Positions 3-1,990 of a stretch of 64,000 bases of DNA are shown here, in pieces. The stretch is taken from contig CAVVHU010000009.1 of NCBI GenBank assembly GCA_963748195.1, positions 3,335 through 67,334 on the forward strand. Reading direction: 5' to 3'. This DNA comes from an uncultured Chlamydiales bacterium. Lineage in GTDB: Bacteria > Chlamydiota > Chlamydiia > Chlamydiales > JAAKFR01. The notes under the pieces were generated by a model that was not told where the DNA came from, made no database searches, and saw nothing but the letters and a program-made list of their open reading frames with translations. The position numbers and the translations under genes were made by a program. The number at the start of each line of letters is the position of its first letter. Position 1 is the first letter of the stretch.

Positions 3-1772
3 GTGCGTTTTACCGTTTGGGCTCCGAATGCAATGCGCGTTTCTGTTGTTGGGGATTTTAACTTCTGGGATGGAAGGGTCAACCCTATGCGGAGCATGGG
101 AAGTTCAGGAGTTTGGGAGCTGTTTATTCCAGGGCTTACCTTTGGGGAGAGATACAAGTACGAGATCAAAACACATCAAGGGGAAATTCTCACGAAATCC
201 GACCCTTATGCAAATGCCTCTGAAATTCGTCCTTTGACTGCCTCAGTAGTCGCAGATTTGGATTCGCACGATTGGAAAGACGACCTCTGGATAAACAAAA
301 GGATAGTAGAGTGTAACGATCCTAAACCGCTCAATATTTATGAGGTGCATTTAGGATCCTGGAGAGTGCCGCATGGACATCATCTCAGCTATTTAGCTCT
401 TGCAGAAGAGCTTGTAGAGTATTGCAAGGAGATGGGGTATACCCATGTCGAGCTCATGCCTATTGAAGAACATCCACTCGATGAATCATGGGGTTATCAG
501 GTGACAGGTTTTTATGCCGTCACCAGCCGTTACGGTTCTCCTGCTGATTTTCAAGCTTTTGTCGATATTATGCATCAAAACGGTATTGGCGTGATTCTCG
601 ATTGGGTACCAGGTCATTTTCCATCTGACGGATTCTCTTTGGCTAATTTTGATGGCACAGCCCTATATGAACACGAAGACCCTAGAAAAGGGTACCATCC
701 TCACTGGAATACCTTGATTTTCAATTATGGACGCCACGAAGTATCGAATTTTTTAATCGCAAACGCCCTTTTTTGGATCGAAAAATTCCACTTAGACGGT
801 TTGAGAGTAGATGCCGTCGCTTCAATGCTTTATCTCGATTATGGGCGTGAAGCAGGGGAGTGGATCCCAAATGAAAGCGGGGGACGGGAAAACCTTGAGG
901 CGATTGAATTTATCAAGCATATGAATGCGATCGTGCATAAACAGTGTCCCGGTGTGATCACGGTTGCTGAAGAGTCCACCTCTTTTGCCGGCGTCACGCG
1001 CCCTGTAGAATGGGATGGGCTGGGCTTTGATTATAAGTGGAATATGGGGTGGATGAATGATACGCTGAGGTATTTTCATCGCGATCCGCTCTACCGGCGC
1101 TACCATCACAATGACCTTACTTTTGGGCTATTATATGCCTTTTCTGAACGGTTTATCCTCGTTCTGTCACACGATGAGGTCGTGCATGGGAAGGGGAGTT
1201 TACTCTCAAAAATGCCAGGTGATTATTGGCAAAAATTTGCCAATTTGCGGCTTTTATTGAGTTACATGATCTGCCAGCCCGGAAAAAAAATGCTCTTTAT
1301 GGGAGGAGAACTGGCGCAATTTAGCGAATGGTGGGTAAAAGAGGAGATTCATTGGCATTTGCTACAATTCCCAAGTCACAGTGGAATTCAACAAATGGTC
1401 AAAGAAATTAACCATTTCTATCTCAAACACAATCCTTTATGGGAATGTGACTTTGATTTTACAGGGTTTGAGTGGGTGGATTTTGCCGATACGGAAAACA
1501 GCGTAATCAGCTATCGGAGAAAGGGAAAGACCAGTAACTATCAGCTTCTATGTGTGCATAACTTTACCCCTGAGTGTCACACCAATTATTTCTTCTCCCT
1601 TCCAAATATCATGTCGATCAAAGAGATATTTAACACTGATGAGGAGAGATTTGGCGGTTCCGGTAAGAAAAATCTTGAGGTGGAAATTACTCGCGACGCA
1701 GAGGGCAACTCTACAGGCATCAACCTAACTCTAGCCCCCCTTGCCACAATGATTTTCGAGATTACTTATTAA
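3..1772 (+). CDS. glgB: 1,4-alpha-glucan branching enzyme (5' end lies outside the window)
   Basis: GH13 branching-enzyme motifs: FTVWAPNA, IYEVHLGSW, SWGYQ, DWVPGHF, GLRVDAVASMLY, AEEST, LSHDEVVHGK. Confidence 0.97.
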   Translation: MRFTVWAPNAMRVSVVGDFNFWDGRVNPMRSMGSSGVWELFIPGLTFGERYKYEIKTHQGEILTKSDPYANASEIRPLTASVVADLDSHDWKDDLWINKRIVECNDPKPLNIYEVHLGSWRVPHGHHLSYLALAEELVEYCKEMGYTHVELMPIEEHPLDESWGYQVTGFYAVTSRYGSPADFQAFVDIMHQNGIGVILDWVPGHFPSDGFSLANFDGTALYEHEDPRKGYHPHWNTLIFNYGRHEVSNFLIANALFWIEKFHLDGLRVDAVASMLYLDYGREAGEWIPNESGGRENLEAIEFIKHMNAIVHKQCPGVITVAEESTSFAGVTRPVEWDGLGFDYKWNMGWMNDTLRYFHRDPLYRRYHHNDLTFGLLYAFSERFILVLSHDEVVHGKGSLLSKMPGDYWQKFANLRLLLSYMICQPGKKMLFMGGELAQFSEWWVKEEIHWHLLQFPSHSGIQQMVKEINHFYLKHNPLWECDFDFTGFEWVDFADTENSVISYRRKGKTSNYQLLCVHNFTPECHTNYFFSLPNIMSIKEIFNTDEERFGGSGKKNLEVEITRDAEGNSTGINLTLAPLATMIFEITY

Positions 1773-1935
1773 CCTGAACTTTGGGTTTTTCTCGCTCATC
1801 TTCAGGGAGTTTGCTTGCACCTCTTGTGCTTTTCGACCTTGTAAAGGGCCTTTGGCCATTCACTTCGGCCGAAAATCCCAAGATTTGCAGCGCAAACTCT
1901 TCTGAATCTGAGGGAGAAAAACCCAAAGTTCAGGT
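1772..1935. mobile_element. Fold-back MITE-like element, family A, copy 1 (164 bp)
   Basis: 27-bp terminal inverted repeats ACCTGAACTTTGGGTTTTTCTCGCTCA (26/27 match). Flanked by direct repeat TATTA (1767-1771 and 1936-1940). 163/164 identical to 55254-55417. Confidence 0.92.
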
Positions 1936-1990
1936 TATTAATCAAAATGCTTGGGACTAAAATTATCTAACTGTTTATACTCTGGTTCTT

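Follow-up and report, generated by a model that had tools for sequence, protein, structure and literature searches.

Correia elements (CREE/NEMIS) of Neisseria, ERIC sequences and Rickettsia palindromic elements (RPEs) are small, gene-less hairpin repeats with inverted ends that often lie at the ends of genes, and for several repeats of this type no transposase is known in the same genome. Their modes of insertion differ: Correia elements duplicate TA rather than 5 bp, RPEs insert in frame within genes and ERIC sequences have no clear duplication. Among autonomous elements, ends starting with AC and short, variable target duplications are typical of the IS982 family in the ISfinder table. An IS982-family MITE has already been published, MITECca01, which derives from ISCca4 in Cardinium; it is ~240 bp long, has been reported from one strain where intact parent copies coexist with it, and keeps short stretches of the parent IS beyond its ends (PMC9769881).

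Compared by description only, MITECca01 and the element reported here are both short and gene-less with inverted-repeat ends like those of IS982-family insertion sequences. Both are present in many copies in an intracellular bacterium, mostly in intergenic DNA or inside other mobile elements, and for both the presumed mobiliser is an IS982 transposase acting in trans. The present element differs in being ~163 bp long, in having just 17 nt in common with the IS, in occurring in 30 of 151 genomes and in having a full-length hairpin that is kept by covariation; moreover, no intact parent lies alongside it in any genome examined. By comparison with the Correia, ERIC and RPE type of repeat, it is distinguished by a parent IS family that can be named.

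The window, i.e. the whole stretch of 64,000 nucleotides that was analysed, contains two forward-strand copies of a 164-bp element (ACCTGAAC...GTTCAGGT): copy 1 at 1772–1935, directly after glgB, and copy 2 at 55254–55417, which is intergenic and identical to the genome consensus. They are a single base apart, at position 1913, where copy 1 has G and both copy 2 and the consensus have C; the G is therefore a private change of copy 1, and it costs this copy one stem pair. The terminal inverted repeats occupy 1772–1798 (left) and 1909–1935 (right) of the forward strand in copy 1, with their one mismatch at 1913; in copy 2, 27 nt of each arm are perfectly complementary. Both copies fold as a single hairpin with arms of ~80 bp that pair up to a GGCC-TTT-GGCC tip (1847–1857, forward strand, in copy 1). 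The minimum free energy of the RNA fold was −90.1 kcal/mol by comparison with −42.6 ± 4.1 for shuffled sequences (z = −11.7; none of 200 shuffles was equal), and that of the DNA fold was −52.5 kcal/mol (z = −11.9). Each copy has its own 5-bp flanking repeat, TATTA at 1767–1771 and 1936–1940 for copy 1 and TAGTA at 55249–55253 and 55418–55422 for copy 2. An initial annotation of this DNA had described two copies with one difference, arms pairing over their full length and a separate 5-bp repeat for each copy, and all of this was borne out. There is no gene inside the 164 bp, which are crossed just by chance frames of 54–59 codons. Rfam covariance models gave no matches at E ≤ 1 over window positions 1600–2100; plasmid and phage collections held no match to the element; and a scan of copy 1 revealed neither a terminator-like site nor a U-run terminator, nor any promoter-like site within the element.

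The draft assembly of this organism (G000; 18 contigs, 95% complete) harbours 32 full-length copies on 10 of its 18 contigs, as well as shortened derivatives. Twenty-seven copies are exactly 164 bp long; 13 of these are identical to the consensus and six more are one base off. Perfect 5-bp duplications flank 22 of the 32 copies, with the central base alike on both sides, and 20 of the 22 read TANTA; in related genomes such perfect duplications were present at 25 of 50 copies. Duplications without the final A (TAAAT, TATTC) fix the element boundaries and the 5-bp length, and position counts of the insertion sites give t-T-A-N-T-A-r. One insertion could be compared with its empty site: the copy at C14:3473–3636 interrupts a 1.77-kb IS200/IS605 element with TATTA on either side, whereas the window's own copy of that IS200/IS605 element reads ...GGACGTTATTATATTTGC... 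unbroken and the alignment of the ten other full-length copies is continuous. The filled site set against its uninterrupted sister copies is proof that the element inserted and duplicated TATTA. The element is thus short (under ~300 bp) and gene-less, with terminal inverted repeats, a duplication demonstrated against an empty site and multiple dispersed copies, as is expected of a MITE. The data support recent mobility of a non-autonomous element, with insertion via a 5-bp staggered cut at TANTA, which is what the initial annotation had proposed; the genome-wide survey of copies, flanks and empty sites that it had suggested agrees with this, as does a glgB end that is empty in another genome (see below). 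There has been a recent burst of copies in this genome, and the family itself is an old one that ranges across the order.

The ends of the element led to a candidate mobiliser. Another chlamydial genome, G111, carries three intact IS982 copies of 1018–1023 bp, the 292-amino-acid ORF of which reaches 279.8 bits with NF033520 (cut-off 130) and 264 bits with PF13612. The ends of this IS, ACCTGAACTTTGGGTTT, are identical to the element ends at 17 of 17 nt, these being the first 17 nt of the left terminal repeat at 1772–1798, and its three copies are all flanked by perfect 5-bp duplications at TANTA-like sites (TACTA, TAATA and TAAGA). The same type of end was found at both sides of IS982 copies in G047 and G161, and at the left end only in G152. 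Two element-rich genomes also have ends of this type on IS982 copies, a left end after TAATA in G018, which belongs to the same family, and a right end before TAATA in G062; both copies are degraded, with a stop codon in the transposase frame, so that no genome examined shows an intact pair of element and IS982. By comparison with the IS, the element is without a transposase gene and one sixth as long, and its interior is unrelated, the similarity being confined to the 17-nt ends.

On this basis we consider the element very probably to be a MITE of the IS982 family that depends on a DDE transposase of this family, acting in trans, to recognise its ends. Judged from the matching ends and duplications, an IS982-family transposase is the most likely mobiliser. 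This enzyme would bind ends of the form ACCTGA(A/G)(C/T)TTTGGGTTT and make staggered cuts 5 bp apart at t-TANTA-r target sites, with repair duplicating the five bases. The initial annotation had named no mobiliser; the window indeed contains no transposase with matching ends, but the family of the mobiliser can now be named. The earlier view that the element is more than a simple deletion derivative stands, as nothing beyond the 17-nt ends resembles the IS, whereas its supposed closeness to ERIC and Rickettsia palindromic elements does not as far as its movement is concerned, ends and duplications together making an ordinary IS/MITE pair.

A parent was sought throughout the draft genome. None of the 18 contigs encodes an IS982 transposase, the best NF033520 match reaching 46 bits (cut-off 130), and tblastn with the G111 protein returned nothing at E ≤ 1e-3; as the draft is 95% complete, the organism may still have such a gene, and that an IS982 enzyme moved the copies present here is what their ends and flanks suggest. 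The absence of a transposase with matching ends, noted earlier for the window, extends to the whole assembly. A fuzzy search with the 22-nt end recovered two solo ends (C3:20544 and C2:567698), neither with a convincing IS982 remnant alongside, and otherwise just shortened derivatives, and no matching element end lay within 300 nt of the contig ends. Self-comparison of the genome revealed the IS200/IS605 element (12 copies) and two IS256-like multi-copy elements, none of which has the ends of the element. An IS5/IS1182-like multi-copy element was rejected as parent, having GGCCTTGTTGCG ends and a flanking repeat of 20–21 bp, and searches with PF13612, PF01609, PF13358, PF00665, NF033539 (IS1380) and NF033540 (IS701) found no ACCTGA-ended element in the genome. 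In the closed genome G024 there are 37 end matches and three element copies that are 99–100% alike; the best match to the IS982 model is just 21 bits and none of the other DDE insertion sequences shares the ends of the element. The unpaired ends in this genome belong to no IS but proved to be solo ends or mini-derivatives of 36–38 bp, and a three-copy DDE IS with TAATGCCGTC ends was rejected as parent.

The only IS in the assembly with ends at all similar is an IS630-family element on contig C15, the nearest candidate for a different resident transposase that might move the element. Its ends begin ACCCGAGCT, seven of the first nine bases fitting the consensus of the element family, and its flanks, TATTA and TAATA, resemble TANTA sites. 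IS630 elements duplicate TA, and the central base is not the same in its two flanks, which is what a duplication of TA and not of 5 bp would give. Stop codons interrupt the reading frame; the protein was not found in the element-rich genomes G001, G008, G016, G018 and G024; and closed G024 has no DDE_3 candidate whatever. The match to the element covers at most 9 nt, whereas IS982 matches at 17 of 17, and mobilisation by a different resident transposase such as this IS630 is very unlikely; classification of the element as an IS630/Tc1/mariner-derived MITE was rejected for the same short match and for its 5-bp, non-TA duplication.

Across the 151 genomes of the order, co-occurrence was weak: a PF13612 match was present in 16 of 30 element-bearing and 42 of 121 element-free genomes (odds ratio 2.1, P = 0.09; the genomes are not independent), and of the five genomes with a strong IS982 match that were searched for the element (G111, G047, G161, G152 and G113) none had it. 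That IS982 is missing from 14 of the 30 element-bearing genomes could favour movement of a single-stranded hairpin by a tyrosine (HUH) transposase, much as REP/REPIN sequences depend on RAYT and IS200/IS605 derivatives on TnpA; the whole element is after all one long, covariation-kept hairpin, and the genome, with its twelve IS200/IS605 copies, encodes an intact TnpA (NF033573, 153 bits) many times over. To our knowledge, HUH-class enzymes make no 5-bp target duplication, and the duplications at 22 of 32 copies and in the filled/empty pair speak against this route, as do the element ends, which are those of DDE-type IS982; the IS200/IS605 copies here have neither inverted-repeat ends nor duplications. 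We regard HUH-mediated movement as extremely improbable, and a REPIN/RAYT or IS200/IS605-derived palindrome, inserting without duplication by a fixed short motif, was discarded as a classification because of the 5-bp duplications. Transposition by an IS982-family enzyme in trans remains the preferred reading.

Among the 30 genomes that carry the family, the length is kept at 160–166 bp across at least eight families and the termini are conserved. The covariation analysis proposed in the initial annotation showed the whole-length hairpin to be kept by many compensatory changes, far past the 17-nt IS ends; G-U pairs numbered 211 against 155 A-C mismatches (strand bias of wobble pairs). When orthologous retention between species was looked for, the flanks of a copy in G004 had no DNA match in G000. 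Persistence across many families of environmental chlamydiae, often without an IS982 gene, together with the fixed length and ~60 bp of stem covariation beyond the ends, could mean that the hairpin itself is the functional unit, either through transposition in a folded form (a cruciform or single-strand hairpin in which the two ends come together) or as a host-adopted 3′-end element adjacent to stop codons. We know of no requirement for a folded form among DDE transposons of the IS982 family and hold this reading to be rather unlikely. Covariation of the full hairpin when the enzyme should need the ends alone nevertheless poses a small but real puzzle about selection.

Our searches of the literature on MITEs and palindromic repeats in chlamydiae found no description of such an element, in agreement with the statement in the initial annotation that no family of this kind had been described for Chlamydiota; passages of the Waddlia genome paper and of a Rhabdochlamydiaceae paper treat transposases and repeats in general terms only. 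The family is widespread in the order and apparently undescribed, yet an ordinary kind of selfish DNA. Environmental chlamydiae are models for IS-driven genome reduction, and in the searchable papers such studies count transposase genes only, to which an element that carries no gene, yet has tens of copies per genome in one fifth of the sampled genomes, is invisible. Its copies fragment assemblies, lie on stop codons, take the place of gene ends and interrupt other mobile elements. With its ends, footprint and likely enzyme named, it can be annotated and provides a dated marker of recent transposition.

Insertions coincided with stop codons more often than expected: of the 27 insertions in non-coding sequence, 8 overlap a stop, by comparison with 120 of 1817 TANTA sites (6.6%; binomial P = 2.6e-4), and for 12 of the 32 copies the stop of an ORF of 120 amino acids or more is no further than 12 nt away. 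The preferred site t-TANTA-r holds TAA or TAG on both strands and the element starts with A, so that insertions at stop codons rebuild the stop and are tolerated. These figures could also be read as host use, with the hairpin retained as a 3′-end signal (terminator, RNase target or transcript stabiliser) after stops such as that of glgB and mobility being secondary; covariation reaching well inward of the part that the IS ends explain, and the conserved length, would fit with this. The enrichment, however, is explained without host function by the stop codons within the target itself. The copies show no preferred orientation towards the adjoining gene (eight in the same direction, six opposite), no U-run terminator was predicted at copy 1, and the number of G-U pairs barely exceeds that of A-C mismatches, giving no clear strand-specific RNA signal. 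The glgB site is, furthermore, empty in G001, and we judge maintenance by host use to be unlikely; insertion by an IS982-type enzyme with reconstruction of the stop is favoured.

This reconstruction can be followed at copy 1. The ORF at 3–1772 encodes the glycogen-branching enzyme GlgB (NF003811, 936 bits; cut-off 741), and its stop codon, TAA at 1770–1772 on the forward strand, combines the final two bases of the left duplication with the base at which the element starts. As an A (1941) follows the right duplication, the empty site also read TAT TAA, which shows that the glgB stop codon was hit and then regenerated, as the initial annotation had claimed. Rebuilding of the stop would have left copy 1 as the immediate 3′ flank of glgB, where the hairpin may influence the glgB transcript. 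In the same-genus genome G001, the end of glgB is without the element and the spacing there is ~166 bp shorter.

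The two copies of the 164-bp element in the window (1772–1935 and 55254–55417) each run from ACCTGAAC to GTTCAGGT and, as the initial annotation had reported, differ at a single position, window 1913, where copy 1 has G against the C of both copy 2 and the genome consensus. A separate 5-bp direct repeat flanks each copy (TATTA at copy 1, TAGTA at copy 2), and the fold-back described beyond the terminal repeats was recovered, with 27 nt pairing perfectly in copy 2 followed by small internal mismatches up to the GGCC-TTT-GGCC tip. Folded as RNA, the element reached −90.1 kcal/mol; 200 dinucleotide shuffles gave −42.6 ± 4.1, none of them as good (z −11.7). 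Folded as DNA, it reached −52.5 kcal/mol (z −11.9). Such stability lies far outside chance expectation. GlgB (NF003811, 936 bits; cut-off 741) is encoded by the ORF that ends at 1772, and its stop codon was indeed hit and regenerated: the TAA takes two bases from the left duplication and one, the first, from the element. The unoccupied site also reads TAT TAA, from the right duplication and the next base.

Whole-genome BLASTN and tabulation of flanks in the source draft genome, G000 (2.42 Mb, 18 contigs, estimated completeness 95%), of which the window is C9:3335–67334, identified 32 full-length or nearly full-length copies. Perfect 5-bp duplications flank 22 of these (TATTA 10, TAATA 7, TAGTA 2, TACTA 1, TAAAA 1 and TAGGA 1); three have a duplication with one mismatch, two an extra A at the left junction beside a perfect 5-bp duplication, and five decayed or unclear flanks. 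Exactly 164 bp is the length of 27 copies, among which 13 are identical to the majority consensus, six are one base off and the remainder 2 to 13 bases off; G000 has therefore seen a recent burst, superimposed on older copies. Shortened derivatives of 68, 81 and 100 bp, with both ends kept, are also present. In a minority of copies the element end is separated from a perfect 5-bp duplication by one additional A, or by A and T (G000 C1:56938 and C2:270487, locus L133 in genome G087 and L130 in G125, and likewise the IS982 copy L144 in G047), which looks as if a donor-site flanking base had moved along with the element. One copy (C4:633069–633232, duplication TAGGA) sits within the 3′ end of a 290-aa ORF (633099–633971, minus strand) and provides its last ~44 codons and stop. 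Separately, the G000 contig ends C8/C17, C7/C17, C6/C7 and C5/C6 overlap mutually over 2–6.5 kb at 98–99.4% identity, so the assembly may contain strain variants left unresolved or repeats left uncollapsed.

Insertion was examined by comparing filled and empty sites. The copy at C14:3473–3636 interrupts a 1.77-kb IS200/IS605 element that encodes TnpA (NF033573, 153 bits) and TnpB, whereas eleven other full-length copies of this IS in G000 are 97.7–100% alike and align without a break. One of the ~12 copies in the genome, also 1.77 kb, lies in the window (22190–23960; C9:25524–27293); its TnpA has 136 aa, its TnpB is spread over two frames, and its empty site reads ...GGACGTTATTATATTTGC..., against ...GGACGT TATTA–element–TATTA TATTTGC... 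at the filled site. The pair is proof of insertion with target duplication. The IS200/IS605 copies have neither inverted ends nor duplications of their own. The end of glgB is also empty in G001, a genome of the same genus, where the spacing of the flanking matches is ~166 bp shorter; the glgB stop of another genome, G005, carries TAATA. In related genomes a perfect 5-bp duplication was found at 25/50 copies, and one with a single mismatch at 10 more. Some duplications end in T or C (TAAAT, TATTC), which rules out that the element is longer and its duplication shorter.

The proposed TANTA target was confirmed by position counts over the 32 sites, which give t-T-A-N-T-A-r. With elements removed computationally and ORFs of at least 150 aa as reference, 19 insertion sites are non-coding, eight overlap a stop codon and five are coding, compared with 1697, 120 and 4578, respectively, for all TANTA sites in G000. 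Coding sequence is thus depleted of insertions, and outside it overlap with stop codons is enriched (8/27 versus 6.6% of TANTA sites; binomial P = 2.6e-4). By a looser criterion, 12/32 copies lie no more than 12 nt from a stop codon that closes an ORF of 120 aa or longer; stop-adjoining copies are oriented with the gene in eight cases and against it in six. Both strands of the motif contain TAA or TAG, and A is the first base of the element, so that a stop codon is regenerated when it is hit; we attribute the enrichment to target preference combined with tolerance and do not take it as a sign of function.

By BLAST, 11 of the 24 further genomes from its family have the element, against 0/16 genomes from other families. 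A covariance model built from 56 copies, which is more sensitive than BLAST, matched 30/151 genomes of the order in many families, nearly always over all 163 positions, and alignments for families f8, f14, f16, f25, f28 and f39 showed the same termini, lengths of 160–166 bp and 5-bp duplications. When the genomes of 185,579 species were scanned for an exact pattern, the 27 stretches that matched were all in Chlamydiales-type MAGs.

Covariation was tested on two sets, in which counts are inflated by kinship of the copies and arm-to-arm copying could mimic selection. Among the 56 same-family copies, 87.5% of cells are paired and both sides have changed in 34/68 pairs (226 cells; slid controls ≤68); among 24 copies from eight families, 80.2% are paired, with double changes in 43/68 pairs (198 cells; slid controls ≤87). 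In each set 0/500 column shuffles reached the observed value. All 24 cross-family copies form a single hairpin with paired ends, and the compensated pairs lie mostly within the stem, past the 17 nt common to IS982. Despite both caveats the stem is clearly maintained; G-U (211) versus A-C (155) gave no clear RNA-strand signal.

The initial annotation had named no mobiliser for want of a transposase with matching ends; this holds for the whole G000 assembly as well as the window, but IS982 copies elsewhere in the order carry the element's ends. IS982-family ends begin with AC. When 151 genomes from the order were searched with PF13612, the flanks of strong matches bore the ends of the element. 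The closed genome G111, from another family, has three IS982 copies of 1018–1023 bp with an intact 292-aa ORF (NF033520, 279.8 bits, cut-off 130; PF13612, 264 bits), the left ends of which, ACCTGAACTTTGGGTTT in 3/3 copies, are identical to the G000 element at 17/17 positions; at the right end one copy has this sequence too and the other two depart from it by one base (ACCTGAATTTTGGGTTT), and the duplications TACTA, TAATA and TAAGA are all perfect. G047 and G161 have one IS982 copy each with ends of this type on both sides, and the single copy in G152 has a matching left end. Two element-rich genomes retain IS982 copies with interrupted transposase frames: the copy in G018, from the family of G000, contains TGA in its frame and has the left end with TAATA before it; the copy in G062 contains TAG in its frame and has the right end followed by TAATA. 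Past the shared 17 nt this IS982 and the element are unrelated, so the element did not arise from that IS by simple internal deletion; the initial annotation, from the fold-back, had likewise found it closer to ERIC and Rickettsia palindromic elements than to a deletion-derived MITE. None of five IS982-bearing genomes searched (G111, G047, G161, G152 and G113) has the element, 14/30 element-bearing genomes have no PF13612 match, and an intact matching IS982 together with the element was found in no genome examined. The element and PF13612 matches co-occur weakly (odds ratio 2.1, P = 0.09; strong matches 3.8, P = 0.04), and the genomes are not independent.

Within G000, the best match to the IS982 model scored 46 bits, below the cut-off of 130, tblastn with the G111 protein found nothing, and no matching end lies close to any contig end. 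Draft binning tends to lose 1-kb multi-copy IS elements, which is an argument and not a result. An IS630-like element on C15 is an unlikely mobiliser: it shares 7/9 of the first end bases, but is broken and absent from element-rich relatives. This IS630-family element (C15:147–1468; DDE_3) has ACCCGAGCTATAAACAGG ends and flanks TATTA and TAATA, and its right end adjoins 200 bp of its left end repeated in inverted orientation. An IS5/IS1182-like element (C4:408913–410027, ~1115 bp, 345-aa ORF, GGCCTTGTTGCG ends) is flanked by a 20–21-bp direct repeat of target sequence. The closed genome G024 gave 37 end matches and three element copies 99–100% alike, and no IS with element-type ends. It also harbours mini-derivatives of 36–38 bp consisting of the two outermost ends only (L044, L049 and L053; a perfect duplication, TATTA, flanks one of them), a longer variant of 240 bp (L054, L055), and a three-copy DDE IS (L117–L119) with TAATGCCGTCAAGTTAAGG ends, each copy of which lies within a palindrome, GGTCGC...GCGACC, suggestive of REP-like hairpins as insertion sites.

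MITEs of IS982 type are already known: MITECca01, derived from ISCca4 in Cardinium, is 240 bp and was described in one strain (PMC9769881), whereas the present element is spread across the order. In the portion of the literature covered, no description of a MITE in chlamydiae was found, in keeping with the earlier statement for Chlamydiota. What is notable here is the order-wide spread, the fixed length, the covariation-kept stem and the stop-codon-compatible target.

Other repeats were seen in the window. A second, unrelated family adjoins copy 2 at 55430–55600; it starts CCCCATTTCTCA..., has inverted arms at 55436–55459 and 55574–55597, and has roughly 10–20 matching stretches elsewhere in G000 (e.g. 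C4:248073–248581, C14:37881–38395 and C2:567880–568000). The regions 25060–25493 and 27455–28129 contain direct repeats D1, D3 and D4 of 206, 109 and 112 nt (100%, 94% and 88% alike), spaced ~2.4–2.6 kb apart.
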